Shown one piece after another: positions 791 to 19,708 of a DNA stretch of 64,000 bases. The notes beneath the pieces were generated by a model, which had not been told where the DNA came from, ran no database searches, and saw only the letters and a list, made by a program, of their open reading frames with translations. The stretch lies in assembly GCF_055900595.2 (NCBI RefSeq), contig NZ_CM148325.1; one strand, given 5' to 3'. How positions within the stretch are numbered: position 1 is the stretch's first letter; each line of letters opens with the position of its first letter. Both the position numbers and the translations under genes were made by a program.

Positions 791-1737
791 TACAGACCGA
801 CCTCCGTGAAGAAGTGATGACGATCCGCCATCACCATGCGCGAGCGCTTATGTGGGAAGTCGAACTCTTTAATTGTCCGGTATCCCGCAGGCTCAAGATG
901 GCGGAACAGGCGCAGGTTATCGGTGCGTGGCTCCAGTACTGTGCGCTGCGTACGGGGCTCATCCAGCAGCAGGTAATGTGTCAGCCCGCGCAGCCAGCTT
1001 TGCACATAGTGGGCCCCGCGCCATTGCTGTTCACCAACCAGCAGATGCAGGCCACGGTCAAAGGGCTGCCACGAATAGTGACGACCAATGCGGTCTTCCG
1101 CCGCCCAGTAGATTTCGAAATAGCTGAATGGCCGATCGTCGAAGCACCCAATCAGCGGGAATGCATGTTTACCGGTGAGCTGGCGCTCCAGATAGGCGGT
1201 CTGTACCTCCAGTGAGCCACTTTGCTCCCAGAAATACTCAACGCGCGGATCATTCATCCAGCGGGTGAAACGTTCTGCATCAGAAACGGGATCGGCAATG
1301 CGGAAACTCAGCATCCTGCGAATACGTGGATCGTAACGGCGGTAAACCTCACCCTGTGGACGGGGTGGGCGCTGCGGGAAATAAATCTCACGCTCTGCAT
1401 CAAAAACCATTTCACCGGAGGCCCGGTTTGCCGGTGAACTCAACCATAACGGTAACTGCCAGAAGGCAGTACGATGGATAATGTCGCTTTTTACCTGCCC
1501 AAAAAGCGTCAGCGCCTGTGGCTCCTCACGCCATTCGGCCCAGGGGAGAGCCACTGCTGACAGTTGTGGAGCGGCGATAAATATCTGATCCAGCGCATCG
1601 CACAGCCACCCTGTCGGCAGCTCCCCGGGACAGTGCAACACCGCGCTATTGTCCAGTCCCCAGCCAAGATTCAGGGGCTTGTCGAGTTTTTCACAGCGCA
1701 GTCCATATCTGCTGTGAATAATGTTTGCCTCAGACAT
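790..1737 (-). CDS. iucB: N6-hydroxylysine acetyltransferase IucB (315 aa)
   Basis: Track ORF 790..1737; length and sequence match recalled IucB; lies between iucA and iucC. Confidence 0.9.
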   Translation of the reverse strand: MSEANIIHSRYGLRCEKLDKPLNLGWGLDNSAVLHCPGELPTGWLCDALDQIFIAAPQLSAVALPWAEWREEPQALTLFGQVKSDIIHRTAFWQLPLWLSSPANRASGEMVFDAEREIYFPQRPPRPQGEVYRRYDPRIRRMLSFRIADPVSDAERFTRWMNDPRVEYFWEQSGSLEVQTAYLERQLTGKHAFPLIGCFDDRPFSYFEIYWAAEDRIGRHYSWQPFDRGLHLLVGEQQWRGAHYVQSWLRGLTHYLLLDEPRTQRTVLEPRTDNLRLFRHLEPAGYRTIKEFDFPHKRSRMVMADRHHFFTEVGL

Positions 1738-3462
1738 TCAGACCTCCTGAGCCTGCAGCGGGTTAGCGAAATCGAAATAGATCACCGAAGGGTCAACAAT
1801 GGTGTTCTCGTTATGATCGTTCAGATAACAGAAAAAGTTACCTTTTACGTTCCAGTACGGACTTTCCAGCACGTAGTTGAGACAGGTTTTATGAGTCACC
1901 TGATCACGCACTTCAGCCAGCGATGCTCGTACACGAGCCATCAGATTCGATTCGCTGTCCAGCCCGGCAGCCCCCAGCGCAGCGGTCACAGCAAAAGTGG
2001 AGTTAACCAGCAGGTAATAAGGGAAATAGCGCAGCAACTGCTCATGGGTGAAAATATTTTCCGCCTGCGCCTCGCCAATAGAATCGAGCCAGTCTGTCGC
2101 GTGAGGCATAAAAGCGCTGCCCTGACAGTCACGGTAAATAAATCCGACCGGCAGATCCCCAAGCATCTGGACAAGAATATTTTGCTGATGCGCCAGCAGC
2201 ACCAGGCCGTAATCCGCTTCAGCCGTAAACAGCGGCTTTAGCACTTGCTGACAGTATGCATCGACCCATGCATGGGCGGCCTGTTGCACAGTGATACCGA
2301 GGCGATCGCTCAGGCGTTTTACCGCCGAAACCAGCAGCGAATCACCGCCATCAGGTGCGGCCTGAGTCAGGGAGACCAGTACGTTAGTCTGGCTTTTCGG
2401 CTGATCCACCAGCAGATTTTCACGCAGGGCAAACAGACTTTCCTGCATGATGTTGCCGTTAAGATCGCGCAGCCCGGCCCAGCCATCCTCCTGCATTACC
2501 CGGAAAGTCGGGAAGCGGACCTGTAGCATCTGCCAGCCGTCGGTTTGAGCCAGGCGTGCCAGGCGCATCCCACGCTTCACTTCTTTCACGGACAGAGTAC
2601 GGATGGAGTTGGTCAGCCGTACGCTCAGGGAGAACTTGATCATATCGCGGCTGGTGGCACAGTAGAGGGAACGGGAAGAGGTGGTCGGCAGCCACGACGT
2701 GCCGGCCTCACCTAAGTCTTTAATCAGCCCTTTAGCAACAAGTGCCTGGCACCACCCCTGCTGCAAAAGATATTCCCCCTGCCACGGGTGCAACGGGAAC
2801 AGCCATTGGTTGTCACTTAATTCGTTGAGTAACTGAGGCGCATTCTCTGCGGCAAATCGCGTCAGCCGCTGTTGAAGGTTGAGATGCAAACTTTCACCGG
2901 CGATTTGCGTTTTATCCACCGAAAACCACCGCAGTGGGAAGTGGGGTGCCATATCAGGCAGGTAGCGTTCAGCCTCCCGCCGGTTAAACGGTTCATGAGA
3001 CTTAGGCGCAGGGTGGAAAGCGTGTCCTGTCAGCAGCGCCTGCTCAGCCTCGCCAAAATTCAACGCTTTTTCACGCAGAGCGGCCCAGTCATGACGGGCA
3101 TCAATTGCCTGTTGCGTATGGACATGGCTTTCCAGCACGCGCTGGTGGAAAGTTTCGCAGAGGGGAACGGGCAGAAACAGTTGATGGCGTAGCTTATCAA
3201 TAATAAGCCGGGAGAGAGTGGTAAAGTCGACAGGATAACTGCCTGATGCCGTGACCAGACGTGCAGGAAATGCAAAGCGGTGATGCTGGGTTGGGGAGAA
3301 ATAAGCCACTCTGAAATGGAGCGATTTCTGCTCATCCAGCGGGATGAGCAATTCGTCTGGCGGGTATTCTGTCAGTTTCCAGTCTGTGGTTTCACGAATC
3401 AGTGCATTCAGGAAGCACTGCGCAGCCACATCTGTGGCTGGTTTTTCAGAGGGCAGGGTCAT
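1738..3462 (-). CDS. iucA: Aerobactin synthase IucA
   Basis: Track ORF 1738..3525; I place the start at the internal Met (MTLPSEKPATDVAAQCF...) at 3462, which sits just downstream of the Fur box; NRPS-independent siderophore synthetase family by recall. Confidence 0.9.
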   Translation of the reverse strand: MTLPSEKPATDVAAQCFLNALIRETTDWKLTEYPPDELLIPLDEQKSLHFRVAYFSPTQHHRFAFPARLVTASGSYPVDFTTLSRLIIDKLRHQLFLPVPLCETFHQRVLESHVHTQQAIDARHDWAALREKALNFGEAEQALLTGHAFHPAPKSHEPFNRREAERYLPDMAPHFPLRWFSVDKTQIAGESLHLNLQQRLTRFAAENAPQLLNELSDNQWLFPLHPWQGEYLLQQGWCQALVAKGLIKDLGEAGTSWLPTTSSRSLYCATSRDMIKFSLSVRLTNSIRTLSVKEVKRGMRLARLAQTDGWQMLQVRFPTFRVMQEDGWAGLRDLNGNIMQESLFALRENLLVDQPKSQTNVLVSLTQAAPDGGDSLLVSAVKRLSDRLGITVQQAAHAWVDAYCQQVLKPLFTAEADYGLVLLAHQQNILVQMLGDLPVGFIYRDCQGSAFMPHATDWLDSIGEAQAENIFTHEQLLRYFPYYLLVNSTFAVTAALGAAGLDSESNLMARVRASLAEVRDQVTHKTCLNYVLESPYWNVKGNFFCYLNDHNENTIVDPSVIYFDFANPLQAQEV

Positions 3463-3504
3463 AGTCAAACAGCTCCCACACAGCAAAATAATAACAATTA
3501 TGTC

Positions 3505-3523
3505 AATAATGATTCTCATTATC
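3505..3523. promoter_or_regulatory. Fur box in the aerobactin (iuc) promoter
   Basis: Sequence aataatgattctcattatc is the reverse complement of the classical GATAATGAGAATCATTATT iron box, 45 bp upstream of the iucA start; divergent from the MFS gene. Confidence 0.85.
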
Positions 3524-3597
3524 AATAATAAATGTTATTGTCAGATAAATTAATTTTACAAATAAACACAATTAATACATGGAGTTGAAACATTATA

Positions 3598-4791
3598 ATG
3601 TCACCAGGGATCGAAGATACGCCCCAAAAACCACTGTCCTGCTGGCCACTTGCGTTCAGTGCCGGGCTTCTCGGTATCGGACAGAACGGTCTGCTGGTTG
3701 TGCTCCCTGTTCTGGTCATACAGACAAATCTGAGTCTGTCTGTATGGGCTGCCCTGCTGATGCTTGGCTCAATGCTGTTTCTGCCATCGTCCCCGTGCTG
3801 GGGAAAGCAAATTTCCCGTACTGGCAGTAAACCTGTGGTGTTGTGGGCTCTGGGAGGATATGGCATAAGCTTTACCCTGCTAGGGCTGGGAAGCGTGCTG
3901 ATGGCTACCAGCGCCATAACAACAGCGGTGGGACTGGGAATATTAATCATCGCCCGGATCGCCTACGGGCTGACCGTGTCGGCAATGGTGCCAGCCTGTC
4001 AGGTCTGGGCATTGCAGAGAGCTGGAGAAGGGAATCGCATGGCCGCTCTGGCAACCATCAGCTCCGGCCTGAGTTGCGGCAGGCTATTCGGGCCGCTGTG
4101 CGCGGCAGCAATGCTGGCCATTCATCCTCTGGCGCCACTGGGGCTGCTGATGGCAGCCCCAGTGCTGGCGCTGCTGATGCTGCTGCGGTTGCCCGGCACA
4201 CCACCACAGCCCACACCGGAGTGCAAGAGCGTCAGTCTGAAGCGGGATTGTCTGCCTTATCTGCTTTGCGCAATATTACTGGCTGCGGCGGTGAGCATGA
4301 TGCAGCTTGGACTTTCGCCTGCCCTTACTCGCCAGTTCGCCACGGATACCACCGCCATTAGCCAACAGGTGGCCTGGCTGTTGGGTCTGTCCGCAGTAGC
4401 TGCGCTTATCGCGCAGTTCGGGGTACTCCGTCCGCAGCGCCTGACTCCGGTGGCCCTGCTCCTGAGTGCCGGAGTGTTGATGAGTGGTGGTCTGGCTATC
4501 ATGCTCTCCGAACAGCTATGGTTGTTTTACCCGGGCTGTGCAGTGCTGTCATTTGGAGCAGCTCTGGCAACACCCGCTTATCAACTTCTACTGAATGATA
4601 AGCTGGCTGATGGCGCAGGCGCGGGCTGGCTCGCTACCAGTCACACACTTGGCTATGGACTGTGCGCTTTGCTGGTGCCGCTGGTATCGAAAACAGGTGT
4701 CGCAATCGCGCTGATTATGGCAGCATTATTTGCAACTATATTATTTACCATTGTGTCTGTATTTATCTGGCATTACCGTACTATCAAATAA
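3598..4791 (+). CDS. shiF: MFS transporter, ShiF-like (397 aa), divergent from iucA
   Basis: Track ORF; multi-pass hydrophobic protein typical of MFS; position upstream of and divergent from iucA as in SHI-2-type aerobactin islands (recall). Confidence 0.7.
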   Translation: MSPGIEDTPQKPLSCWPLAFSAGLLGIGQNGLLVVLPVLVIQTNLSLSVWAALLMLGSMLFLPSSPCWGKQISRTGSKPVVLWALGGYGISFTLLGLGSVLMATSAITTAVGLGILIIARIAYGLTVSAMVPACQVWALQRAGEGNRMAALATISSGLSCGRLFGPLCAAAMLAIHPLAPLGLLMAAPVLALLMLLRLPGTPPQPTPECKSVSLKRDCLPYLLCAILLAAAVSMMQLGLSPALTRQFATDTTAISQQVAWLLGLSAVAALIAQFGVLRPQRLTPVALLLSAGVLMSGGLAIMLSEQLWLFYPGCAVLSFGAALATPAYQLLLNDKLADGAGAGWLATSHTLGYGLCALLVPLVSKTGVAIALIMAALFATILFTIVSVFIWHYRTIK

Positions 4792-4903
4792 AGATATGAT
4801 CATCACCTTACTGGAGTAAATCAGAGGATATGAGAGAGGACCTGCGTCTGATGAAAACATGTCAGGCAGTGTTCTGGCTTGCTGCCCCCGCCTGGATTTG
4901 CCC

Positions 4904-5809
4904 CTATATTTCCAGACATCTGTTATCACTTAACCCATTACAGGCCCGCTGCCGCAGATATTCCCGTGGCGAGCGATAACCCAACGCACTATGCGGATGC
5001 CATTCGTTATAATGCTCGAACGCCTCTGCAAGGTTCTTTGCTGCCGTTAACCCGTCTGGTTTGGGTATGATACTTATGTAGTCACGCTTTATCGTTTTCA
5101 CGAAGCTCTCTGCTATGCCGTTACTCTCCGGACTCCGCACCGCCGTGTTTTTCGGTTCAAGCCCCAACATCCGGGCAAACTGCCGTGTTTCATTAGCCCG
5201 GTAGCATGAACCATTATCCGTCAGCCACTCTACTGGAGACGCCGGAAGCTCGTTGCCGAAGCGGCGTTCCACCGCTCCCAGCATGACGTCCTGTACTGTT
5301 TCACTGTTGAAGCCGCCCGTAGTGACCGCCCAGTGCAGTGCCTCACGGTCACAGCAGTCCAGCGCGAACGTGACCCGCAGTTTTTCTCCGTTATCACAGC
5401 GGAACTCGAACCCGTCAGAGCACCATCGCTGATTACTTTCTTTCACAGCCACTCTGCCGGTATGTGCCCGTTTCGATGGCGGTACAGCGGTTTTTCGCTC
5501 AAGCAACAGCGCATTCTGGCGCATGATCCGGTAAATACGTTTGGCATTGATCGCAGGCATACCATCAAGTTCTGTTTGTCTGCGAAGCAGCGCCCATACC
5601 CGACGATAACCATATGTGGGTAGCTCTCCGATAACATGGTGTATACGGCGAAGCACATCCGTATCATCCGTGTGACGGCTGCGGCGGCCGTCCTTCCAGT
5701 CATCGGCTCGTCTGAGAATGACGTGCAACTGCGCACGCGACACCCGGAGACAACGGCTGACGAAGCTTACTCCCCATCCCCGGGCAATAAGGGCGCGTGC
5801 GCTATCCAC
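4904..5809 (-). CDS. insD: IS2 InsD (OrfB) transposase
   Basis: Track ORF 301 aa [19 protein letters not shown]..., recalled IS2 OrfB. Confidence 0.9.
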
Positions 5810-6132
5810 TTTTTTGCTCGCCCATATTCAACGGCTTCTTTAAGGAGTTCATTTTCCATCGTTTTTTTGCCGAGCAGACGCTGGAGTTCTTTAATCTGCT
5901 TCATGGCGGCAGCAAGTTCAGAGGCAGGAACGACCTGTTCTCCGGCAGCCACAGCAGTAAGACTTCCCTCCTGGTATTGCTTACGCCAGAGAAATAACTG
6001 GCTGGCTGCCACACCATGTTGCCGGGCAACAAGGGAGACCGTCATTCCCGGTTCAAAGCTCTGCTGAACGATAGCGATCTTTTCCTGTGTAGTACGCCGT
6101 CTGCGTTTCTCCGGCCCTAAGACATCAATCAT
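5767..6132 (-). CDS. insC: IS2 InsC (OrfA)
   Basis: Track ORF 5767..6177 trimmed to Met of [18 protein letters not shown]. Confidence 0.9.
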
Positions 6133-6840
6133 CTGTTCTCCAATGACTAGTCTAAAAACTAGTATTAAGACTATCACTTATTTAAGTGATATTGGTTGTC
6201 TGGAGATTCAGGGGGCCAGTCTAACGGTTTACGTTACGCCCTTAGCTACCTGGCTAAACAGGATCAGAAAGAACACGGTATTATTCTGATGCGTAGCAGA
6301 CTTCCCGAAAAAAGTAACCGCGGCCGACCACGACACAACTGAATTACAGCTGTATTAGAATTAAGTTTCCGTAAGTTGTTGGGAGGTGCTTGAGTTAATA
6401 GGCAGCAGAGGGGGCGCTGTAATCAGTGTAGGGGACCCGAATTTCTGCTGTGGTGCTTCAGTGGTTCGGATACAGGTAACGAATATGGTTCATAAATCTG
6501 ACAGTGATGAATTAGCAGCACTGAGGGAAGACATCACTTGAAGCTTATGGGATTGAATGGCGACGTAAACCGCAGAGTCCTGTGCAGTGCGTTTCCGTAT
6601 TATCCACGGATGAGAAAGTTGCGTTATTTCGTCGGTTGTTTCGTGGGCGTAGTGATGTATGGGGCCTTCGATGGGAAAGTAAAACTAGCGGAAAATAAAA
6701 GTACTCGCCTGCCTACGGACCTTTTTACTCAGGGTATTTTTGTTTTCCATAACGTTGCGTATTAACATGAAGGAGAACGAGGGGGATTAGGTAATCTCTT
6801 TCCATGAAAATACGCAAACGTTCATCACCGAAGTGAAAAA

Positions 6841-7269
6841 TCAGTTTTTGATATTTAAATAATTTTTCAAATCATATTTCAGCAGGACACTACCAGCACC
6901 TAACAGCAGCACATCTTTGATGACAAAACTGTCAACTTTTCCCAGTTGTGGTAACAGACTTAGTGTGACTAAACCTGTAACAATAACGATAATATCTCCC
7001 AGTATGCCAGCAGCAGGCCTGAAGAAGCCGATACTCAGTGCTAGAAAAGTGATAGTTTCTACTATGCCGAGGAAATAGCTCCCCCCATGAACACCAAACA
7101 TAATGTACAGGATATTCAGCCACGTGGGAGAAATCAGGGGCTTGAGGGCCATCACTTCAAAATCAAACCATTTATAGGTCCCGAAGAGCATAAATATTAT
7201 AATAACAGACAGGCGAAGAATAACTATGTCATAATCTGATTTAATGTAAACATTAATAAATTTTTTCAT
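6841..7269 (-). CDS. DUF417-family small membrane protein (YkgB/RclC-like)
   Basis: Track ORF trimmed to MKKFINVYIK with GGAG RBS; several hydrophobic helices; 39 bp downstream of the TetR gene. Confidence 0.65.
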   Translation of the reverse strand: MKKFINVYIKSDYDIVILRLSVIIIFMLFGTYKWFDFEVMALKPLISPTWLNILYIMFGVHGGSYFLGIVETITFLALSIGFFRPAAGILGDIIVIVTGLVTLSLLPQLGKVDSFVIKDVLLLGAGSVLLKYDLKNYLNIKN

Positions 7270-7308
7270 TTCATTCTCCGGGTGGAAAATTATATGCACT
7301 AAAAAGGA

Positions 7309-7869
7309 TTAAGTACGGGTATCAAGCATTTTAATTAAAGCGTTAACGGTTCCTGAATAGATATCATGTGGTGGAAGTCGATTTAACATCAGTGCCCCCT
7401 TTAGTGTAGAACAGACTATAACGGCGAGCTCATCCGGAAGAAGAACTGTTTTGAACTCTCCACTATTCTGCCCGGAGGTGATAATATCTTTAATCATCTG
7501 TATCTCCTGATGTGCCAGTTGACTTACAGCCTCCTGTAATTCAGGAGAAAACTGATGGCTGTCGGATAGCATGGCATAAATACCGCACATTTCCCCTCTT
7601 TCAGCACAACCAGCAAATGCATCAAGATATGTCCTGAGACGTTGTACACCTGAAGAAACATTATGGAGAGTTATATTAAGTCTATCAAATACTTCTGTTT
7701 TGTATTGGCAGTAGGCTATACCAAGATCAGTTTTCCTCGGGAAATGGTGATGAATACTGGCTTTTCTGATACCAATTTCTTTTTCCAGATCTGCGTAACT
7801 GAACCCCAAAAATCCGCGTTGCTGGATCAGAGTATCCGTTATGCGAAGTATATTCTCATAAGTAGACAC
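7309..7869 (-). CDS. TetR-family transcriptional regulator (186 aa)
   Basis: N-terminal HTH signature (...RGFLGFSYADLEKEIGIRKASIHHHF...) typical of TetR; likely operon with the DUF417 gene. Confidence 0.8.
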   Translation of the reverse strand: MSTYENILRITDTLIQQRGFLGFSYADLEKEIGIRKASIHHHFPRKTDLGIAYCQYKTEVFDRLNITLHNVSSGVQRLRTYLDAFAGCAERGEMCGIYAMLSDSHQFSPELQEAVSQLAHQEIQMIKDIITSGQNSGEFKTVLLPDELAVIVCSTLKGALMLNRLPPHDIYSGTVNALIKMLDTRT

Positions 7870-7910
7870 GGCTTTACCTGTTATGTATTAAAGGGACTAT
7901 TATACATATT

Positions 7911-8171
7911 TTAGCGATAGATAATGGCAGTTCCATCAAGTTTATTTTTTCCTCCCAATGAAGTGATTCGGAAATGAGAACCTCCTGCCTGCTCCGCTTT
8001 GTCTTTAAGCGCAGTTGCCACCTCTTCTGGTGTATATAGATTACCAACAGAAATATAGTCTGACGGCATCAAACCAACAACGTCCTGACGATTAATTTCA
8101 TCTGCAGCAGTTGCGTAGCCTGTCAGAATGAGACCAAGGGCGACAATGGTAGTGCAGATAACATAATTCAT
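7911..8171 (-). CDS. DUF1471 (YdgH/BhsA/McbA-like) small secreted stress protein
   Basis: Signal peptide MNYVICTTIVALGLILTGYATAA followed by a roughly 60-aa domain ending ...GTAIIYR, as in the BhsA family (recall). Confidence 0.65.
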   Translation of the reverse strand: MNYVICTTIVALGLILTGYATAADEINRQDVVGLMPSDYISVGNLYTPEEVATALKDKAEQAGGSHFRITSLGGKNKLDGTAIIYR

Positions 8172-8722
8172 GAGCAATTTCTCTTTATGTTTGCGATACT
8201 ACACATGCTACCTTCTGATTGGTAGGCTTGCAAGATGGATTTATTTAAAATAAGAGGGATGATTTGTATCAAATTGTTTTGTATTTTTGTGTTTTGTATC
8301 ACTGAGGTGAAGTTGTAAGATCTGGCCCTCTGCGAGGTTGGCTCTGTCGAAAGGAACAGGTGACGAGAGTTAACATCGTTGCCTTGGCTGCATGGGGGAT
8401 ATGTAGCTACCCCCTGATATTTCCGCCACGGAAGCCAATATGAACAACAATAACAATACGCCTCGTTTCCAGTATGCTTCATGTCGGATATTTTGTAAGC
8501 GCTATGTACTTCCCGGGACGCTTATCTTTTAGCCGTAGCTGGTAGTGCAATAAAAGCCTGGCAGCAATCCAGGCCTCTACGTTCTAAGAATCAACTGTCA
8601 GTGCAGAGGAATGCGCACGACGCTCTCGTTGTTATTGGCTTTTGCCGTCGCACCGTCGTTTTTCACGGTGACAAACAGCGCGTGCGCTTTGCTATCCGTC
8701 TTATATCACTGGTGCTGACAAT

Positions 8723-9469
8723 GTGGATGAGGTCGCCTTTAAAAAAGGACATCGTTATATAACGGTGATCTCCGATCGCGATGGTCGTGCGCTGGCCTTA
8801 ACGGACGATCGTGGCACAGAGAGCCTCGCCGGCTATCTTCGCACGCTTACTGACGGGCAGTTGCTGGCTATCAAAACGCTCTCAATGGACATGAATGCAG
8901 GCTATATAAGAGCAGCGCGTATCCACTTACCCTGTGCGGTTGAGAAAATCGCCTTCGACCGCTTCCATGTAGCAAAGCAACTTGGCGAAGTGGTTGATAA
9001 AACCCGTCAGAATGAACATCCGCACCTCCCTGTTGAAAGTTGGCGTCAGGCAAAGGGGACCCGCTTCCTGTGGCAGTACAGCGATAAATGGATGACCAAA
9101 TCCAGGCAGGAAAAGCTGATATGGCTGCGTGCACAGATGAAGCTGACAAGCCAGTGCTGGGCGCTGAAAGAGCTGGCAAAGGATATCTGGAACAGGCCAT
9201 GGAGTGAGGAAAGACGTAATGACTGGGAGAGATGGCTGGCTCTGGCGGCCAACAGTGACGTTCCTATGATGAAAAACGCCGCGAAAACGATAGGAAAAAG
9301 GCTTTACGGGATCCTGAATGCCATGCGACACCGTGTCTCAAACGGAAACGCGGAGGCGCTTAACAGTAAGATCAGGCTACTGAGGATAAAAGCCAGGGGA
9401 TACCGAAATCGGGAGCGCTTTAAGCTGGGCGTGATGTTCCACTACGGGAAACTGAATATGGCGTTCTGA
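8723..9469 (+). pseudogene. ISL3-family transposase, 3' fragment (N-terminus missing)
   Basis: C-terminal motif ...HRVSNGNAEALNSKIRLLRIKARGYRNRERFKLGVMFHYG typical of ISL3 transposases; no N-terminal region upstream; a second, more degenerate copy of the same region abuts IS629 (about 10100-10153 and 11464-11540). Confidence 0.6.
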
Positions 9470-9652
9470 GCCTTCCCACCATGATCAGGGAAAACCCATG
9501 TATCATCAGGTTATTATGTGAGCTGGTAAATCAGATTTTGCATGGACTGAAATCATGCTGTTATTTAGGGATAAAGAACCGGCTTTTTGTCCCGCCCCCT
9601 CGCCATTAATGAAAAAAAGAATGGAATGCTCCCTCTGAGGAGAAGGGCAGTA

Positions 9653-9750
9653 GAAAAAAGAACCCGCCAGCAAAAATATTGGGGATGAACAGCTTTCGCT
9701 ACTCAGATTGCTGGCGGGTATAGTTCCTCATGAAATAAAAATACTACATA
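9653..9750 (-). ncRNA. Candidate Fur-regulated small RNA (about 95 nt), not RyhB
   Basis: Minus strand: TTGACA, 17-bp spacer containing the Fur box, weak -10 (TAAAAG), then about 95 nt ending in a 10-bp GC-rich inverted repeat (CCCGCCAGCA...TGCTGGCGGG) followed by TTCTTTTTT; no ORF with RBS. Confidence 0.3.
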
Positions 9751-9763
9751 ATCCTTTTAATGC

Positions 9764-9782
9764 AAATGATAATCATTGTCAA
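9764..9782. promoter_or_regulatory. Fur-box-like operator overlapping a TTGACA -35 element
   Basis: aaatgataatcattgtcaa matches the Fur consensus GATAATGATAATCATTATC at 15 of 16 aligned positions; on the minus strand it overlaps TTGACA. Confidence 0.5.
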
Positions 9783-10208
9783 TTGTTTGTGCGTGTTTTC
9801 TTCATACATGATTGGTAGTAAAGGTGATTCAGGCTATCAGTTTTTGCTGATGATCTTTTTATCTATAGAAAACATCAGCCAAGCTGGTTGGTTCAGTAAC
9901 GCTTTCATCTTTGAGCATTTTATAAAAAATTCTTGAATTGTTAAAATAGATTAAAGTCTGGTAACAGCAAAAGTTAAACGAGAAATCAAAAGGAGGTCCC
10001 AAATCTGAAAATGAAGCATCTGCGTGATGATGTTGCAGCGGGACGTCGTCGGCTGTATATCAGAGCAATCTGTCCATCCCTGCGTGAAGCCCCGTTACTT
10101 TATTCGTACCCCTTATAATGGGGTGTTAGCCAGCCAGACCCGGCATGATTACTGTGAACCGCCCCGGGAATCCTGGAGACTAAATTCCCTGAGAAAGAGG
10201 TAAACAGG

Positions 10209-10535
10209 ATGACTAAAAATACACGTTTTTCCCCCGAAGTCCGTCAACGGGCAGTTCGTATGGTTCTGGAAAGTCAGGACGAATATGACTCACAATGGGC
10301 GGCAATTTGTTCCATAGCTCCAAAGATTGGCTGTACGCCAGAGACTCTGCGTGTCTGGGTTCGCCAGCATGAGCGGGATACCGGGGGCGGTGATGGTGGG
10401 CTCACCACCGCTGAACGTCAGCGTCTGAAAGAGCTGGAACGTGAAAATCGTGAACTGCGCCGCAGTAACGATATCCTTCGCCAGGCTTCCGCTTATTTTG
10501 CGAAGGCGGAGTTCGACCGCCTCTGGAAAAAATAA
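10209..10535 (+). CDS. IS629 OrfA (108 aa)
   Basis: [23 protein letters not shown]... matches recalled IS629/IS1203 OrfA. Confidence 0.9.
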
Positions 10536-11335
10536 TGCCACTGCTGGATAAGCTGCGTGAGCAGTACGGGGTCGGACCGGTATGCAGTGAACAGCATATT
10601 GCCCCGTCAACGTATTACCATTGTCAGCAGCAGCGGCATCATCCTGATAAACGCAGTGCCCGTTGTCAGCGCGATGACTGGCTGAAGAGAGAGATACAGC
10701 GCGTATACGATGAAAATCATCAGGTGTACGGTGTGCGTAAAGTCTGGCGTCAGTTGTTACGGGAAGGAATCAGGGTGGCCAGATGTACAGTGGCGCGCCT
10801 CATGGCGGTTATGGGACTTGCCGGTGTTCTCCGGGGTAAAAAGGTCCGCACTACCGTCAGCCGGAAAACCGTTGCTGCAGGTGACCGCGTAAACCGTCAG
10901 TTCGTGGCAGAACGTCCTGACCAGCTGTGGGTGGCTGATTTTACTTACGTCAGCACATGGCAGGGCTTCGTCTATGTGGCGTTCATCATTGATGTGTTTG
11001 CCGGATACATCGTGGGGTGGTGGGTCTCATCGTCTATGGAAACGACATTCGTGCTGGATGCGCTGGAGCAGGCGTTGTGGGCCCGCCGTCCGTCCGGCAC
11101 CATCCATCACAGCGATAAAGGCTCTCAGTATGTGTCACTGGCCTATATGGAGCGATTAAAAGAAGCAAAACTGCTGGCATCAACAGGGAGTACAGGCGAC
11201 TCGTATGACAACGCGATGGCGGAGAGCATCAATGGTCTTTACAAAGCGGAGGTAATACACCGTAAGAGCTGGAAAAACCGTGCAGAAGTGGAACTGGCCA
11301 CACTCACGTGGGTGGACTGGTATAACAATCGATGA
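10535..11335 (+). CDS. IS629 OrfB transposase, shortened by a premature stop (266 aa versus about 296)
   Basis: Ends ...TWVDWYNNR then TGA; the expected C-terminus (LLGRLGHTPPAEAEKAYYASIGN) is readable just after the stop. Confidence 0.8.
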   Translation: MPLLDKLREQYGVGPVCSEQHIAPSTYYHCQQQRHHPDKRSARCQRDDWLKREIQRVYDENHQVYGVRKVWRQLLREGIRVARCTVARLMAVMGLAGVLRGKKVRTTVSRKTVAAGDRVNRQFVAERPDQLWVADFTYVSTWQGFVYVAFIIDVFAGYIVGWWVSSSMETTFVLDALEQALWARRPSGTIHHSDKGSQYVSLAYMERLKEAKLLASTGSTGDSYDNAMAESINGLYKAEVIHRKSWKNRAEVELATLTWVDWYNNR

Positions 11336-11985
11336 TTGCTGGGAAGGCTGGGCCATACTCCTCCGGCAGAAGCAGAAAAAGCTTATTATGCTTCCATCGG
11401 AAACAATGATCTGGCAGCCTGAGTTCACAGATAAAACACTCTCCAGGAAACCCGGGGAGGTTCAGTAATATCTGATCGTAACGGACGGACGCTGGAATTA
11501 ACCGATGACCGCAGCACAGAGAGTAGGGGATGCGGACGGTCAAAGATCGTGGAGTTGGATTTTATAAATCTGTCTCCAGTAGTAGATGAACTGAATACAA
11601 AGTTGCCAGAGAGTGGTCTGTCAGGCAGGGAATCAGAAACCGGATATTATTGACTGGTACATTGTGTCGGGCTGTGTACGTTCTCCCCGGACAGACAGTC
11701 TCAGTTCGTAGAATCTATAAATTACTGCTACTGATGCTGCCGGGGAAAGGTGTAACGAAAAAGCAGCCTCCGTTACCGGACAGCAAGAAGGCTGAATGAA
11801 GTTTATGGCGTTTGTATTTTGTAATGTCTGGCCATGCAGTAAATCCAGACAGGTTTTTATTATCATGTGAAGTATTCTGACATAAAATACTAAATTTCTA
11901 TTTTGTGATGAATGCTGCAAAATTGAATCTGCACTCTGATGTAACTTTTATCTGTTTCAGTGAAGCATGCCCACAGATTGAGTTA

Positions 11986-12219
11986 TTAAGTTGTGGAAGA
12001 ACAGTTCTGCCCCGCCTGCTTCTCTCCTTTCAGAAGCCAGTATGTTGCCATGCCTCGCCTTAATGGAGAGCGCTGAACCACACCTTCTTTTTCCAGTAAT
12101 AACAGGTAATAGCGTGCCTGATAATCCGTTACCGCCAGCGCCTCCGCAATTTCTGCGGTTTTCCCTCCATTATGCCTGTTCAGAAATTCCAGTATTTCAT
12201 TCTTCATATATTCACTCAT
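11986..12219 (-). CDS. papI: Pap fimbrial phase-variation regulator PapI (77 aa)
   Basis: [46 protein letters not shown]... matches recalled PapI; divergent from papB. Confidence 0.85.
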
Positions 12220-12399
12220 CTCACTGTAACAAAGTTTCTTCGAATAATAAAAATCATGCTCTCTGTTATCAACGGAAAGGTATTTTTATTCTCTGTGTTT
12301 GCTTTATTTGTGCAATTTAGTGAATTTGCTTTTTGTTGGCTTTATTTGATGTGTATCACATTTTGTGTGTTATTTTTCTGTGAAAAGAAAGTCCGTAAA

Positions 12400-12530
12400 A
12401 ATGCATTTAGACGATCTTTTATGCTGTAAATTCAATTCACCATGATGTTTTTATCTGAGTGTATTCTTGTTGTTAGAATTTTATTCTGGTTTAATTTTGT
12501 TTTGTGGGTTAAAAGATCGTTTAAATCAAT
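12400..12530. promoter_or_regulatory. pap phase-variation switch with two GATC sites 102 bp apart
   Basis: GATC at 12413-12416 (acgatctttta) and 12515-12518 (aaagatcgttta) in the papI-papB intergenic region; spacing matches the known Dam/Lrp switch. Confidence 0.75.
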
Positions 12531-12623
12531 ATTTACAACATAAAAAACTAAATTTAACTTATTGCGTGAAGAGTATTTCCGGGCCGGAAGCATATATCCA
12601 GGGGCCCGACAGAAGGGGGAAAC

Positions 12624-12937
12624 ATGGCGCATCATGAAGTCATCAGTCGGTCAGGAAATGCGTTTTTGCTGAATATACGCGAGAGCGTGCTGTTGCTCGG
12701 CTCTATGTCTGAAATGCATTTTTTTTACTGATAGGTATTTCTTCTATTCACAGTGACAGGGTCATTCTGGCTATGAAGGACTATCTGGTAGGTGGGCACT
12801 CCCGTAAGGAGGTCTGCGAGAAATACCAGATGAATAATGGGTATTTCAGTACAACACTGGGGAGACTTATACGGCTGAATGCTCTTGCAGCAAGGCTTGC
12901 ACCTTATTATACAGATGAGTCATCGGCATTTGACTAA
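12624..12937 (+). pseudogene. papB: papB, frameshifted in a poly-T tract
   Basis: Starts MAHHEVISRSGNAFLLNIRESVLL...SEMHFF then a stop after the T-run at 12719-12726; the downstream frame still encodes ...VILAMKDYLVGGHSRKEVCEKYQMNNGYFSTTLGRLIRLNALAARLAPYYTDESSAFD; length is 1 nt short of an intact frame. Confidence 0.8.
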
Positions 12938-13144
12938 ATTATGGCATTCCGGAGTTTCTGGAAGATAAAAAAAGAAGCCCTTGTCAGAAAGCAGACAGGT
13001 TATATCAGTATTCTGTCGATAAATAACCTGCCCTGAAAATACGAGAATATTATTTGTATTGATCTGGTTATTAAAGGTAATCGGGTCATTTTAAATTGCC
13101 AGATATCTCTGGTGTGTTCAGTAATGAAAAAGAGGTTGTTATTT

Positions 13145-13686
13145 ATGATTAAGTCGGTTATTGCCGGTGCGGTAGCTATGGCAGTGGTGTCTTTTGGTGT
13201 AAATGCTGCTCTAACTACTCCACAGGGGCAGGGTAGAGTAACCTTTAACGGAACTGTTGTTGATGCTCCATGCAGCATTTCTCAGAAATCAGCTGATCAG
13301 TCTATTGATTTTGGACAGCTTTCAAAAAGCTTCCTTCAAGCAGGAGGCGTATCCAAACCAATGAATTTAGATATTGAATTGGTTAATTGTGATATCACTT
13401 CATTTAAGGGGGGGGAGGAGTCTCGGCAGCAAAAAAAGGGACTGTGAAGCTGGCTTTTAGTGGTCCAAGGGTTTCTGGTCATAATGAGGAGTTAGATACC
13501 AGCGGGGGGACAGGTACTGCGATTGTAGTTCAGGCTGCAGGTAAAAACGTTTCTTTCGATGGCACAGAAGGTGATGCTAATACCCTGAAAGATGGTGATA
13601 ATGTGCTGCATTATACTGCGATTGTTAAGAAGTCGTCAGCCAATAATGCCCAAGTCACTGAGGGTGCTTTTTCTGCAGTCGCAACC
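13145..13686 (+). pseudogene. papA: papA major pilin, frameshifted and truncated near its 3' end by IS1
   Basis: Two track ORFs in different frames (13112..13447, 13444..13713) together read as PapA (MIKSVIAGAVAMAVVSFGVNAA...NVLHYTAIVKKSS...TEGAFSAVA); frame break near 13405-13440; coding sequence runs straight into the IS1 left end at 13687. Confidence 0.8.
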
Positions 13687-13741
13687 GGTGATGCTGCCAA
13701 CTTACTGATTTAGTGTATGATGGTGTTTTTGAGGTGCTCCA

Positions 13742-14017
13742 GTGGCTTCTGTTTCTATCAGCTGTCCCTCCTGTTCAGCTACTGACGGGGTGGTGCGTAA
13801 CGGCAAAAGCACCGCCGGACATCAGCGCTATCTCTGCTCTCACTGCCGTAAAACATGGCAACTGCAGTTCACTTACACCGCTTCTCAACCCGGTACGCAC
13901 CAGAAAATCATTGATATGGCCATGAATGGCGTTGGATGCCGGGCAACAGCCCGCATTATGGGCGTTGGCCTCAACACGATTTTACGTCACTTAAAAAACT
14001 CAGGCCGCAGTCGGTAA
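13742..14017 (+). CDS. insA: IS1 InsA
   Basis: 91 aa [30 protein letters not shown]... Confidence 0.9.
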
Positions 14018-14439
14018 CCTCGCGCATACAGCCGGGCAGTGACGTCATCGTCTGCGCGGAAATGGGCGAACAGTGGGGCTATGTCGGGGCTAAATCGCGC
14101 CAGCGCTGGCTGTTTTACGCGTATGACAGGCTCCGGAAGACGGTTGTTGCGCACGTATTCGGTGAACGCACGATGGCGACGCTGGGGCGTCTTATGAGCC
14201 TGCTGTCACCCTTTGACGTGGTGATATGGATGACGGATGGCTGGCCGCTGTATGAATCCCGCCTGAAGGGAAAGCTGCACGTAATCAGCAAGCGATATAC
14301 GCAGCGAATTGAGCGGCATAACCTGAATCTGAGGCAGCACCTGGCACGGCTGGGACGGAAGTCGCTGTCGTTCTCAAAATCGGTGGAGCTGCATGACAAA
14401 GTCATCGGGCATTATCTGAACATAAAACACTATCAATAA
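13936..14439 (+). CDS. insB: IS1 InsB (made as InsAB' by frameshift)
   Basis: 167-aa track ORF overlapping insA in the -1 frame. Confidence 0.9.
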
Positions 14440-14710
14440 GTTGGAGTCATTACCTACAACGTTTATCGACCTCACACGAACAACGATGGTTTACCGCCTT
14501 GCTTACATGAAGAAAAGTGGAAACAGGTTATTCCGGTGTCCTGATTTTGTGAACCACTACAATAATCCTTTTTCACAGACTTGTCAGCAGCCAGCATTTA
14601 TGTTCTTTTACCTGCGGGAATTTATCCGTCTGCCTGTCGGGACTACTCTGTCATACAGAAATCAGGTAGGAATAAATTGTAGTGGAAAGTCGATGTTTAC
14701 CGGATGACTG

Positions 14711-15262
14711 ATGCGCGCTTGTACACAGACAGTGTGTTTCAGTAATATGGAGAATAATGAAATGAATAACACAGACACATTAGAAAAAATAATCAGACAC
14801 CAAAAAAACAAAGACCCCGCATATCCCTTTCGGGAACATTTGTTGATGCAGCTCTGTATTCGCACAAATAAAAGAATGCAGGATAATATATCTGAATTTC
14901 TGGGGGTGTATGGAATAAATCACTCAGCATATATGGTTCTCACCACATTATTCGCAGCGGAGAACCATTGTCTGTCACCTTCAGAGATAAGCCAGAAACT
15001 TCAGTTTACCAGAACTAATATTACCCGCATTACAGATTTTTTAGAAAAAGCCGGATATGTAAAAAGGACGGATAGCAGGGAGGATCGCCGTGCTAAAAAA
15101 ATCAGTCTGACATCTGAAGGTATGTTTTTTATTCAGAGGCTCACTCTTGCACAAAGCATGTATCTGAAAGAAATCTGGGATTATCTGACCCATGATGAAC
15201 AGGAACTGTTTGAAGTCATTAATAAAAAGTTACTGGCACATTTTTCTGATGCCAGCTCATAA
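14711..15262 (+). CDS. papX: MarR-family regulator PapX/SfaX-like (183 aa by track; start may be the internal MENNEMNN)
   Basis: MarR-type wHTH; sequence ...TDTLEKIIRHQKNKDPAYPFREHLLMQLCIRTNKR... matches recalled PapX; sits where the 3' end of a pap operon would be. Confidence 0.75.
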   Translation: MRACTQTVCFSNMENNEMNNTDTLEKIIRHQKNKDPAYPFREHLLMQLCIRTNKRMQDNISEFLGVYGINHSAYMVLTTLFAAENHCLSPSEISQKLQFTRTNITRITDFLEKAGYVKRTDSREDRRAKKISLTSEGMFFIQRLTLAQSMYLKEIWDYLTHDEQELFEVINKKLLAHFSDASS

Positions 15263-15728
15263 AGTGCGAAATATCTGAGGATGCTGGATAGCTTCAGGCA
15301 AGAGAATAATGATTCTTGCAGATGTGTTTTTCCGGATACAAAAACAAAAGTAAAAAATTGCAGCGCCAGGCCACCTTTCAAAGCAGGGAGGCCTGTACCG
15401 CGTCGAAAATTTCAGCCAGTTAATGTAATTGTCTGAACCAGGCACTTCGCCCGGGCAGGAGAAGGAGCGTGGTTGCGGTCATCCTGTATACTGAAGTCGT
15501 TATGAAGGAATAATACAAATAATTGCCCGTTTTCTCTGTACGATAGAGGCAGGTGTGTATGATTGCATTACTATGTTTTTGTGATATAAAAAACTAAATG
15601 GTGAGATATGCATTTTAAAATATAACAAAAATCACCATGAAATAAGAATAATTATCCACGGAGAACATAAACTGCAGACTGTTACAATGCATGCTGTTCA
15701 TCTTGACAATGTCGGTAATGACTCCAAC

Positions 15729-16232
15729 TTATTGATAGTGTTTTATGTTCAGATAATGCCCGATGACTTTGTCATGCAGCTCCACCGATTTTGAGAACGA
15801 CAGCGACTTCCGTCCCAGCCGTGCCAGGTGCTGCCTCAGATTCAGGTTATGCCGCTCAATTCGCTGCGTATATCGCTTGCTGATTACGTGCAGCTTTCCC
15901 TTCAGGCGGGATTCATACAGCGGCCAGCCATCCGTCATCCATATCACCACGTCAAAGGGTGACAGCAGGCTCATAAGACGCCCCAGCGTCGCCATCGTGC
16001 GTTCACCGAATACGTGCGCAACAACCGTCTTCCGGAGCCTGTCATACGCGTAAAACAGCCAGCGCTGGCGCGATTTAGCCCCGACATAGCCCCACTGTTC
16101 GCCCATTTCCGCGCAGACGATGACGTCACTGCCCGGCTGTATGCGCGAGGTTACCGACTGCGGCCTGAGTTTTTTAAGTGACGTAAAATCGTGTTGAGGC
16201 CAACGCCCATAATGCGGGCTGTTGCCCGGCAT
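15729..16232 (-). CDS. insB: IS1 InsB (copy B)
   Basis: Identical to copy A InsB. Confidence 0.9.
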
Positions 16233-16426
16233 CCAACGCCATTCATGGCCATATCAATGATTTTCTGGTGCGTACCGGGTTGAGAAGCGGTGTAAGTGAA
16301 CTGCAGTTGCCATGTTTTACGGCAGTGAGAGCAGAGATAGCGCTGATGTCCGGCGGTGCTTTTGCCGTTACGCACCACCCCGTCAGTAGCTGAACAGGAG
16401 GGACAGCTGATAGAAACAGAAGCCAC
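16151..16426 (-). CDS. insA: IS1 InsA (copy B)
   Basis: Identical to copy A InsA. Confidence 0.9.
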
Positions 16427-16955
16427 TGGAGCACCTCAAAAACACCATCATACACTAAATCAGTAAGTTGGCAGCATCACCCAATCTGCTGACAGACGAA
16501 GATAATGAACCCGTTATGGTTTTTAACGGAGAGAGGAATGTACTGGCAGACAGTCTGAAACCACAGCCTCTGATTCTTCCGGTCAAGGGAAAATAAGCGT
16601 AATGTTCATCACCAGATTATGTACGATGAGTTTTCCACTGTTTATAGCAATTATCTTGCTAATAACCAGACAGGAGTAACCAGACCAACCGAAAACACCG
16701 GGAAGGTGATTACCCGCTGGCAGAGGAAATCCGGTTTTTTTTGATGTCAGCCATAACGTGTTTGACAATAAAGCATCATGAAAGGGTGTTAATGAGTCCA
16801 TGGGATAATTCATAAAAATAATTTACTGTGTTATCCTTTTCAAAAGAAATATTCAGAAGATAACCCCTGGCTGACAACCAGGGGAAGGGGGCATTAACAG
16901 TGTTATTATTGGTGAATAAATTATTACTTGTGTGCAGGATACACTAATGCAATAT

Positions 16956-18029
16956 CTACTGATACTGTATGCCAGTATGTTTCATGCCTGCCGCTGAAAA
17001 CGGCAATATCCAGGGCCAGATATATTCACCATTCATATTTCTGCATTTCTGTACAATTTTCTCAGAAAGCGTCTCATCAATTCTTTCACGCAACTTCTCC
17101 TGCTGTCTTAAAATACTTTCGCATATTTCGAAATCATCTTCCTGCATCAGCATTTCGGCGCATTTAATGATTTCTGCCCGTTCATGCAGCACAGAGGAAT
17201 GATTATAGAGCCAGTTTACAAACAGCAATGCTTCCGGATATTGCCCCCATAACGGGTGGTATGTGGCATAATAATCTTCGGCAGTATCCGGACCGCCTGA
17301 AAAGTTATGCCATACAGCAAGTGGAAATGGATGCAGATTTCCGCACAGTATTTCTGCGATGTAAGTATTTGCCGCAAAGCCGCGACGAAATGCAGTTGCA
17401 GCTTTTACCAGTTCCCCATTAAGAAAATGCAGAAGGCCGAGTTCATACCAGTAAGGTGAAAATTCATCTGCATGTTCCTGCAGTATATGGCGTGCCTGTT
17501 CATGAGCGCCAGTGCGTAACAGTTCCGGTCCCAGTAGCCAGCGTGCACCATGATTATCTTCGGGATTGTAATCCAGTATTTTTTCAATGAGCATGATGGC
17601 ATCCTGATGACGCTGTAAATGTGCATTTGCCAGGATTGCCGCATAGAGGGCACGAAGAAAAGGTCGGTTGTCAGGATGTATCCAGATGATTCTGCCACTG
17701 AAACCTTCAGGGATAAGACGATTGCCAATTGCCAGCCCTTTAAGGGCAGCATTCAGCGCCTTACGCGGGGCATTCTGCTCCAGAAATACGTATGCCAAGT
17801 GAGCGTGTACATCAATAAAGTCATTCTCCTGTCGGGCAAGGCGCCTGAGTTTGTTGATGTAACTTGTTTCGCTGATTTCATCCGCATCGTATGCATCAAT
17901 CAGTTCTTCAAACTCATCCAGCAACGAGCCAAACCAGGTTTCCGGAAATATGAAACAGCCCTGGTTATCGTTCACTTCAAAGCGTAATTTGCCAGTCATA
18001 TTCTGAACCTGTAAAAAAGGATGGACCAT
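16956..18029 (-). CDS. Hypothetical protein with TPR-like helical repeats (357 aa by track; alternative start at 17999)
   Basis: Long ORF with repeated amphipathic helix pairs (...ALNAALKGLAIGNRL..., ...LRALYAAILANAHLQRHQDAIMLIEKILDYNPED...); I do not recognise the family. Confidence 0.6.
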   Translation of the reverse strand: MVHPFLQVQNMTGKLRFEVNDNQGCFIFPETWFGSLLDEFEELIDAYDADEISETSYINKLRRLARQENDFIDVHAHLAYVFLEQNAPRKALNAALKGLAIGNRLIPEGFSGRIIWIHPDNRPFLRALYAAILANAHLQRHQDAIMLIEKILDYNPEDNHGARWLLGPELLRTGAHEQARHILQEHADEFSPYWYELGLLHFLNGELVKAATAFRRGFAANTYIAEILCGNLHPFPLAVWHNFSGGPDTAEDYYATYHPLWGQYPEALLFVNWLYNHSSVLHERAEIIKCAEMLMQEDDFEICESILRQQEKLRERIDETLSEKIVQKCRNMNGEYIWPWILPFSAAGMKHTGIQYQ

Positions 18030-18254
18030 AACCTGCAGGCTATAAAAATTGTGATGCCTGGCATCGGTGTCCTTTTATTGTCCGGGATTAACGTTGCCCA
18101 TGATAATACAGTGAATTCTGTTCTGTGGTAAGACGTTGAGTTATTGAATGAGAACCTCAGCCTGGCTGATGGTTCCGCCGGCATAAAAAAGAAATTGATT
18201 GAGGCGGGTGCTCTTCCCCTTAAGAGGAAGAGCATGTGTGTAAATGGCGTTCAG

Positions 18255-19520: not shown

Positions 19521-19680
19521 AGTTCAGCCTTCTGAATGCGTTAAAGAGGGTACAAATTCTGTCGAACTGGGGTATACCCGCAATTATACCCACACAATGG
19601 GGTTGATGTGGGGGGAATCTGGTTGAGTTCGGTAGAATTGATTTGGAGGCAGAACGCTTAAATTGTGGCGTTCTGAAACG

Positions 19681-19708
19681 AAAAACGGACCTCCGTGGAG
19701 GTCCGTTT
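19681..19708. terminator. Strong hairpin terminator between the tRNA-Phe remnant and the integrase
   Basis: aaaaacggacctcc gtgg aggtccgttt: 11-12 bp perfect stem with T-runs on both sides. Confidence 0.6.

Follow-up and report, generated by a model that had tools for sequence, protein, structure and literature searches.

A pile of decayed insertion sequences between the aerobactin-side and pap modules of a pheV-type genomic island

In a stretch of 64,000 nucleotides of contig NZ_CM148325.1 (RefSeq assembly GCF_055900595.2), hereafter called the window, pieces of several transposase genes follow one another closely, which raises the questions of whether any of them still belongs to a working element, how they came to be joined, and whether the stretch that they form has a function. 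An earlier note on this DNA had described it as stacked IS decay. This description is correct, and the pile is deeper than first described: the 2.8 kb at positions 8720-11524 hold the remains of five IS families, and about 83% of this segment is IS debris. We consider it probable (about 0.85) that the segment is a fossil IS pile, lying between the aerobactin-side and pap modules of a pheV-type island and having no function of its own. The pheV island is made of gene modules with IS between them and carries a partial pap cluster, and the loss of its modules has been ascribed to the flanking IS (PMC11537424). The features are listed in Table 1.

Table 1. Insertion sequences and gene remnants in the window
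Feature	Position	Strand	Evidence
IS2 copy 1, 1331 bp, frames intact, no target-site duplication	4893..6223	-	annotation, sequence comparison
yncE-family gene, 3'-end remnant and downstream spacer	8548..8697	-	sequence match
ISL3 fragment 1, ISKox3-like, 3' 778 bp	8720..9497	+	nucleotide, amino acid and Pfam matches
Lambda-like lysis-region relic	9499..10089	+	match to pSTN0717-20-1
Degenerate IS200-type left-end relic (STnc490/art200)	9870..9992	+	Rfam RF01405
ISEc20 (IS110 family), first 65 bp, cut by IS629	10090..10154	+	100% identity
IS629-like IS3-family element, complete length, 1310 bp	10155..11464	+	nucleotide match, ends
IS629 orfA, 108 codons, intact	10209..10535	+	Pfam HTH_Tnp_1
Programmed -1 frameshift signal, ALIL pseudoknot, intact	10490..10606	+	Rfam RF01497
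IS629 orfB, truncated	10535..11335	+	alignment; Pfam HTH_21, rve, rve_3
IS629 right inverted-repeat tip substitution, ...GGGGAGGTTCA not ...GGGGCGGTTCA	11458	+	alignment
ISL3 fragment 2, ISEc53-like, 60-bp internal piece, codons VISDRNGRTLELTDDRSTES	11465..11524	+	nucleotide match
IS1 copy truncating papA, no target-site duplication	13687..14454	+	annotation, flank comparison
Second IS1 copy, inverted	15714-16481		
IS100 (IS21 family), runs past the window end	62287-62310, then 63641..64000	+	
IS2 copy 2, 1330 bp	62311..63640	-	comparison with copy 1

Two partial copies of ISL3-family elements had been reported, and both are present. The first corresponds to nucleotides 539-1316 of the 1316-bp ISKox3, with 93.3% identity and no gap at the nucleotide level and 96.8% identity at the amino acid level. 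Its right inverted repeat (IRR) is intact, and the first 538 bp are gone, together with the left repeat, the promoter and the 157 N-terminal codons. What stays open is the C-terminal 248-249 of 406 codons (8720/8723-9469), which match Pfam DDE_Tnp_ISL3 at profile positions 3-238 of 240 (E 1.7e-54). A full ISL3 element has both inverted repeats, an 8-bp duplication and a transposase of about 400 amino acids, a set that fragment 1 lacks. It is 97.1% identical to a plasmid copy in strain 2014C-3307 and 84% identical to ISEc53, and in CP018970.1 another IS21-family element adjoins it or lies within it. Fragment 2 corresponds to ISKox3 nucleotides 584-643 with 78% identity (E 7e-8 within the window) and is 84% identical to ISEc53; when it is compared with fragment 1, 13 of the 17 mismatches fall at third codon positions. 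It is genuine, since IS629-free islands hold a 416-bp version of it, which is 356 bp more than the window has; in one such island, that of M22546, this stump runs unbroken across the IS629 site and is 87% identical to ISEc53. As the identities of the two fragments (93% and 84-87%) lie below the usual 95% isoform level, both derive from unnamed relatives of the named elements, and they stem from two different ISL3 elements.

The second copy had been thought to be split by IS629. What the window has is its right side alone, truncated by IS629, and the other half is gone: left of IS629 no ISL3 homology was found, either by tblastn and blastn with ISKox3 or by blastn with the long M22546 stump. 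A reading of this left flank as a 'GHxY' ISL3 motif was rejected, the flank being ISEc20 at 100% identity.

Several smaller remnants had gone unnoticed in the earlier note, namely the ISEc20 fragment, the IS200/art200 relic and what is left of Rz and yncE. The yncE-family remnant matches E. coli ECamp083 with 95.4% identity over 151 bp, and there it overlaps a gene annotated as YncE family at its 3' end. Positions 9499-10091 match, over 594 bp and with 86.9% identity, pSTN0717-20-1, in which Rz/Rz1 pseudogenes and then iss come next. The lysis relic ends in an Rz (i-spanin) remnant of about 70 bp (approximately 10011-10089), and in Nissle PGAP calls a 35-aa 'Rz' ORF in it. Within the relic, the match to RF01405 reaches 65.5 bits (gathering score 56) over the full length of the model, with several broken pairs. 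STnc490 is an IS200 antisense RNA (PMC4513863); the lost IS200 tnpA would have occupied the minus strand, and a search with an approximate TnpA query sequence found no IS200 TnpA homology beside the match. The adjoining 65 bp agree at every position with the 5' end of ISEc20 in VCSW7 and 99-3311, whose copies are 1464 bp long; there the element runs on beyond this point into other sequence and the transposase gene. The remaining 1399 bp, transposase gene included, are absent from the window.

The IS629-like element is the one member of the pile that is present at complete length. Its termini are TGAACCG...GGTTCA, with inverted repeats TGAACCGCCCCGGG... and ...CCCGGGGAGGTTCA. With 96.2% identity to IS629 of pO157 Sakai, taken as the reference, it lies above the isoform level of at least 95%; since the closest intact copies, both on plasmids, reach only 98.5% and 98.2%, it is a distinct isoform. 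OrfA differs from intact references by one or two residues. The frameshift signal, which PGAP also calls, scores 116.3 bits over its full length (gathering score 50), with the A-run at 10527-10533. OrfB matches rve (E 6e-25), and the D, D and E residues are kept in the alignment. It also carries the lineage-specific changes L20Q, A44C, R163W and T205M. The substitution in the tip of the right inverted repeat, which had been overlooked along with the missing target-site duplications, is shared by the window and Nissle and is absent from EC958, DA33137, ZLWT and all reference copies.

The premature stop that had been noted in orfB is confirmed. A C-to-T change at 11333 turns CGA into TGA (11333-11335), and three intact reference copies have CGA at this codon, so that R267* leaves 266 of 296 residues and removes 30 from the C-terminus. 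PGAP marks the gene with an 'internal stop' in both Nissle and EC958. Sequencing error, which the earlier note had named as the way in which its view of the defects could fail, is excluded for this stop and for the fragment boundaries: Nissle 1917 and many other independent assemblies match the locus at 100% identity, EC958 also has T at 11333, the exact 266-aa product is recorded in 3587 collection blocks, and a nonsense substitution is not a typical homopolymer error. The exact truncated OrfB stood in this context alone in each of the 8 distinct places that were read (32 contigs of the 3587 blocks). Of 5426 complete E. coli genomes, 722-724 share the architecture, with 714 records at 99% identity or more.

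The idea that the defects in the window are errors of sequencing or assembly and the elements truly intact has more to draw on at the far end of the window. There, the two further frameshifts that had been noted were both observed, each in one sequence only and each as one 1-bp deletion. In IS2 copy 2, insC is shifted near codon 27 by a deletion at 63467/63468 relative to copy 1; insD is open, and the element, flanked by the 5-bp target duplication GTGAT, is inserted 24 bp inside the left end of IS100. In IS100, a deletion at about 63956 relative to intact IS100 shifts istA, which starts at 63708, at codon 83 and leads to a stop (362 window bases for 363 in intact copies, 99.7%); intact istA encodes 340 aa, and istB falls outside the window. 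No other complete genome has the IS1::IS100::IS2 junction with which these two frameshifts could be compared, and the rightmost 44 kb have no full match in the genome collection, only positions 1-19739 matching Nissle-type islands. Taking the defects together, we regard error as an unlikely explanation. The statement that much of the IS load is non-autonomous was overstated, as IS2 copy 1, the two IS1 copies and the IS66-family and IS21-family elements have intact frames.

Decay of the IS629 copy is also seen in a second line. The sister lineage represented by DA33137 and ZLWT has the same architecture, with a 1-bp deletion in orfB (10854) instead of R267*, and an 8-bp deletion within ISL3 fragment 1; the differing orfB lesion indicates independent decay. 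A further copy of the locus, pE2022-9 (L003), differs at many further positions, has a 1-bp insertion and was left out as a lower-quality copy. Between the two lineages, 15 events in the 1310 bp of IS629 compare with 14 in 2508 bp of flanks (p ~0.04, gene-conversion test). Most of the derived IS629 alleles are unique and not borrowed from known copies, and the sign of gene conversion is weak.

Judged from its sequence, the R267* copy has likely lost transposition activity. It might still work or be mobilised if the last 30 residues of OrfB were dispensable, or if another copy supplied transposase in trans: it retains both of its ends and orfA, along with the frameshift pseudoknot and the DDE triad, and other IS629/IS1203 copies are present in many E. 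coli. We consider this quite improbable. The four missense changes and the repeat-tip substitution have accumulated in the same copy, the independent frameshift of the sister lineage shows an absence of selection on orfB, the exact truncated protein was seen at this locus only in the 8 places read, and the closest plasmid copy of the element is no nearer than 98.5%. IS3-family transposases, as is known from IS911, act preferentially in cis, which counts against supply in trans.

In IS629-free islands the ISEc53-like element upstream of papI is the internal stump described above; the ISKox3-like element and ISEc20 sit in the lambda-like Rz/IS200 relic. In the window, IS629 forms a direct bridge between ISEc20 (position 65) and the stump (about position 584), with ...ACTG of ISEc20 on its left, GTAA... 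of the stump on its right and no 3-4 bp target-site duplication. Since IS629 thus stands without a duplication between unrelated flanks, a deletion or recombination occurred at it, and the missing duplication argues for rearrangement, not against membership of the IS3 family. IS629 itself would have made the junction, either by adjacent deletion (intramolecular transposition) or through homologous recombination of two IS629 copies, and either route would have taken away 356 bp of the stump, the rest of ISEc20 and anything in between. The left 538 bp of the ISKox3-like element may have been lost in a deletion of its own. Once the IS629 copy was fixed, drift brought R267*, the missense changes and the inverted-repeat substitution in the line of the window and Nissle, and the 1-bp deletion in that of DA33137 and ZLWT; the copy would have been unable to make full-length OrfAB transposase and would not have moved since. 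Neither reciprocal junction (the left part of the stump joined to IS629, or IS629 joined to ISEc20 from position 66 onward) was found in any of the 5426 complete E. coli genomes; we therefore only infer in what order the events took place and which of the two routes, adjacent deletion or recombination of two copies, was followed. The proposal that the IS elements act mainly as recombination substrate gains indirect support, in that IS629, IS2 copy 1 and both IS1 copies lack duplications and stand at junctions of unrelated DNA.

Could the pile nevertheless have been put to use? Within 4 bp at the position 3' of papI (about 11525-11529), different IS families abut across islands: in the window it is the ISEc53-like stump, and in strain C51 an IS3-family element with its right end. 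This boundary could be a recurrent landing or exchange point, and/or IS629 orfA with its frameshift signal could be a trans inhibitor of IS3-family elements; if either were true, the pile would be more than passive debris, a speculation to which we give very little weight. Still less credible is outright co-option, in which OrfA or truncated OrfAB would inhibit IS3-family transposition in trans, the art200-like relic or an AS-pc02-like region would act as an sRNA, or the stack would serve 3' of papI as a terminator or insulator. In over 700 genomes of several lineages the locus keeps at least 99% identity, IS629 orfA is intact in both lineages and two Rfam matches exceed their gathering scores. 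However, recent common descent of the island accounts for this conservation, which the flanks share to an equal degree. The survival of orfA is expected by chance because it is short: the probability that two hits fall in orfB and not in orfA is about 0.5 (891 versus 327 bp). The art200 match, in which many pairs are broken, has no cognate tnpA (approximate TnpA query), and intact pap operons are found in islands that lack IS629.

Beyond annotation hygiene its importance is small. As a stable scar, the pile is informative about lineages, and R267* versus the deletion at 10854, the 8-bp deletion in fragment 1 and the substitution at 11458 may serve as markers for typing pheV islands in ExPEC and Nissle-derived strains. 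It also indicates that IS-bounded module junctions in a pheV-type island were made by deletion or recombination and not by simple insertion. For the engineering of Nissle 1917, it marks out 2.8 kb of probably non-functional sequence, of which 1.3 kb is still homologous to other IS629-family copies.

Compared with known elements, fragment 1 is collinear with ISKox3, including the IRR, and fragment 2 with the interior of ISEc53/ISKox3, but they hold just 59% and less than 5% of an element. The IS629-like copy shares with IS629 of pO157 Sakai (isoforms IS1203 and IS3411) the length of 1310 bp, orfA/orfB, the -1 frameshift pseudoknot, the rve DDE domain and the TG...CA ends, and departs from it by its stop, four extra missense changes, altered IRR and missing duplication. 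The ISEc20 piece has no transposase gene, and its non-coding left end is incomplete. The lysis relic resembles the part upstream of iss, with Rz/Rz1 pseudogenes, in the lambda-derived iss/bor region of ColV-type plasmids; unlike that region, it is cut inside Rz by ISEc20 and IS629 and lacks Rz1 and iss. As a whole, the pile is a known kind of structure within a published island, and is ordinary genomic debris. Window positions 1-19739 match the Nissle 1917 island at 99.985% identity, and nothing essential differs from the GI-pheV mosaics (Nissle 1917 GEI, EC958_GI-pheV, CFT073 type); the island in the window meets another island at a 19-nt tRNA-Phe repeat and not at the tRNA gene. To the published picture of GI-pheV our analysis adds the fine anatomy of one boundary, with its ISEc20 and IS200 relics and its independent orfB lesions.

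In E. coli Nissle 1917 the pheV genomic island (reverse strand of NZ_CP022686.1) matches window positions 1-19739 at 99.985% identity. The IS pile at 8720-11524 has papI on one side there and, on the other, the shiF-iuc part of the island (iucABC, an MFS transporter, IS2, DUF417/TetR/DUF1471 genes). The region 8000-12500 has 100% identity to its counterpart in Nissle and in numerous other genomes. Of the 5426 complete E. coli genomes, 724 contain 80% or more of it, and its search against them gave 714 records at ≥99% identity. The stacked IS decay described in the earlier note is real, as about 83% of 8720-11524 is IS-derived, and its structure is deeper than had been described (table). The pile is an ordinary IS graveyard on the border between two modules of an island that has been published, and it has already been sequenced and annotated.

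Features of the IS pile and of related loci in the window
Feature	Position (strand)	Match or content
IS2 copy 1	4893-6223	
Frameshifted 'TOTE conflict system archaeo-eukaryotic primase domain' gene fragment	6485-6695 (+)	Adjoins IS2 copy 1; PGAP, identical Nissle sequence
ISL3 fragment 1	8720-9497	ISKox3 positions 539-1316 of 1316 bp, collinear, gap-free; 93.3% nt, 96.8% aa
Lambda-like relic	9499-10091	86.9% to lambda-derived region upstream of iss on ColV-type plasmids
Probable IS200-type relic	9870-9992 (+)	Rfam STnc490, 65.5 bits (gathering score 56)
ISEc20 stub	10090-10154	First 65 bp of ISEc20, 100%
IS629 copy	10155-11464	1310 bp; 96.2% to IS629 of pO157 Sakai, 98.5% and 98.2% to intact plasmid copies
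orfB stop (R267*)	11333-11335	TGA; CGA in 3/3 intact references
ISL3 fragment 2	11465-11524	60 bp, VISDRNGRTLELTDDRSTES; ISKox3 positions 584-643, 78%, E 7e-8
AS-pc02 match	11657-11835 (-)	Rfam RF02876 ('antisense to pHK01_099'), 58.6 bits (gathering score 40)
pap operon stump	12773-16481	
IS1 cutting papA	13687-14454	
Second, inverted IS1	15714-16481	
tRNA-Phe remnant	19719-19739	19-nt 3' end only
Truncated IS110-family transposase ORF	57858-58358 (+)	Profile positions 105-257 of 343
IS629-family left-end fragment	59646-60043 (-)	400 bp, 93.8%
IS1/IS100/IS2 nest	61922-64000	
IS2 copy 2	62311-63640	

The Nissle match ends past 19739, inside the tRNA-Phe remnant; ARAGORN found no tRNA gene in the window. 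Another island follows, which suggests tandem islands joined at a direct repeat. In the form seen here this second island is carried by none of the complete RefSeq E. coli genomes, and the right 44 kb of the window has a full counterpart in none of the 5426 complete genomes.

Both partial ISL3 copies reported earlier proved real. The ISKox3 reference bounds were set on pNDM5_040047 from the inverted repeats and the 8-bp duplication ATGCATAT. Fragment 1 has an intact right inverted repeat but no left one: the leftmost 538 bp are missing, and with them the promoter and the first 157 codons. Its nearest relative found is a frameshifted copy (97.1%) on a plasmid of strain 2014C-3307. On its left come 22 bases of no assigned origin and then a 150-bp remnant of a yncE-family gene (3' end), so its truncation is a junction left by a deletion rather than the edge of an IS. 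In CP018970.1 (1-868 of the fetched locus) an IS21-family element, comprising IstB and the right end, abuts fragment 1 at window position 8903; judged from this element, the pile is still gathering insertions.

The ColV-type counterpart of the lambda-like relic ends in Rz/Rz1 pseudogenes. Within the relic lies a probable further IS-family remnant, unflagged by the genome annotation, matching STnc490. The matched family is the antisense RNA art200 from the left end of IS200 (PMC4513863). Since several pairs are broken and no adjoining tnpA homology was found, this match is probably a relic. The Rz remnant ends at 10089, directly followed by the start of ISEc20, a 1464-bp IS110-family element whose ends were set from two independent insertions.

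The IS629-like copy has an intact orfA (108 codons) and an intact frameshift pseudoknot (ALIL, 116 bits). Comparison with the intact references bore out the premature orfB stop, which removes 30 of 296 residues and leaves the DDE residues in place. orfB also carries L20Q, A44C, R163W and T205M, none of them found in the references, and a substitution lies at 11458, 7 bases short of the element's right end.

The IS629 copy decayed after fixation, with lesions that differ between strains. The stop (T at 11333) is shared by the Nissle lineage and EC958 (ST131), the latter without the 11458 change in the right inverted repeat. DA33137 and ZLWT, whose junctions are exactly those of the window, have the ancestral C at 11333, a 1-bp deletion at 10854 in orfB, and an 8-bp deletion (9325-9332) in fragment 1; in DA33137 an intact pap operon follows the pile. 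One fixed copy was therefore knocked out twice independently, which indicates neutral decay and rules out sequencing error as the source of the orfB stop. In the assembly collection the exact 266-aa orfB product occurs in 3587 blocks. All eight distinct places read had the same neighbours, which gives no indication that the mutant copy has moved. Between the two lineages the IS629 copy differs at 15 of 1310 bp and its flanks at 14 of 2508 bp (p ~0.04), about twice the differences per base of the surrounding non-coding debris. Gene conversion from known copies is not an obvious cause of this weak excess, because most derived alleles are unique.

Fragment 2 shares 43 of 60 bases with fragment 1, with 13 of the 17 mismatches in third codon positions; the homology is genuine, and the source is an ISL3 element other than that of fragment 1. 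In M22546, which lacks IS629 at this point of its pap island, the fragment 2 sequence lies within a 416-bp internal ISL3 stump (ISKox3 positions 226-643 at 80.6%; 87% identity to ISEc53) that runs uninterrupted across the point of IS629 in the window. The earlier note held that IS629 splits this second copy. The 356 bp to the left in M22546 are absent from the whole window, however, and the left neighbour of IS629 is ISEc20, so that fragment 2 is truncated and not split. A search with the M22546 stump gave 1053 matching records, most with the right-hand 102 bases only (query 400-501, the 60-bp remnant plus 42 bp); the long version occurs in at most 52 genomes, including matches to true ISEc53 copies.

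Just 3' of papI, two unlike IS remnants, the ISEc53-like stump in the window (11524-11529) and, in C51, the right end of an IS3-family element (locus 3492-3501), stop within 4 bp of one point. IS junctions seem to recur at the left border of the pap module. The AS-pc02 match shares the strand of papI and lies about 150 bp 3' of it. In the pap stump, papB encodes 54 aa (about 104 expected), and the frameshifted papA is cut by IS1 and followed by papX and the inverted IS1; neither IS1 copy has a 9-bp duplication. The sister island of DA33137 keeps papB, papA, papH and papC behind the same pile, over the extent of the fetched locus.

Elsewhere in the window, the right-hand island holds further IS debris, namely the more divergent IS629-family fragment and the IS110-family ORF. 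At the right end an IS1 fragment is interrupted by IS100, and IS100 by IS2 copy 2, inserted 24 bp inside its left end. The IS1::IS100 junction with its TTTAG duplication also occurs on an ExPEC plasmid (NZ_CP025329.1), and IS2 copy 2 has a GTGAT duplication. IS2 copy 2 differs from copy 1 by 8 substitutions and a 1-bp deletion that shifts insC near codon 27, insD being open; in IS100, istA is missing a G at ~63956 that intact copies have, which shifts its frame at codon 83. Both frameshifts claimed earlier are thus present in the sequence, and either could still be an error, since no other complete genome has the nest. The view that much of the IS load is non-autonomous was too strong, as IS2 copy 1, both IS1 copies, one IS66-family and one IS21-family element keep intact frames.

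No target-site duplication surrounds the IS629 copy (flanks ACTG on the left, GTAA on the right). Where an IS links two unrelated sequences and has no duplication, the classic causes are IS-mediated adjacent deletion and recombination between two copies. The IS629 junction probably arose by one of these two routes; both reciprocal junctions were sought in 5426 genomes and neither was found. The duplication is likewise missing at IS2 copy 1 and at both IS1 copies bracketing papX and truncating papA. These missing duplications fit the published account of GI-pheV, in which IS elements stand between the modules and module loss is ascribed to them (PMC11537424).
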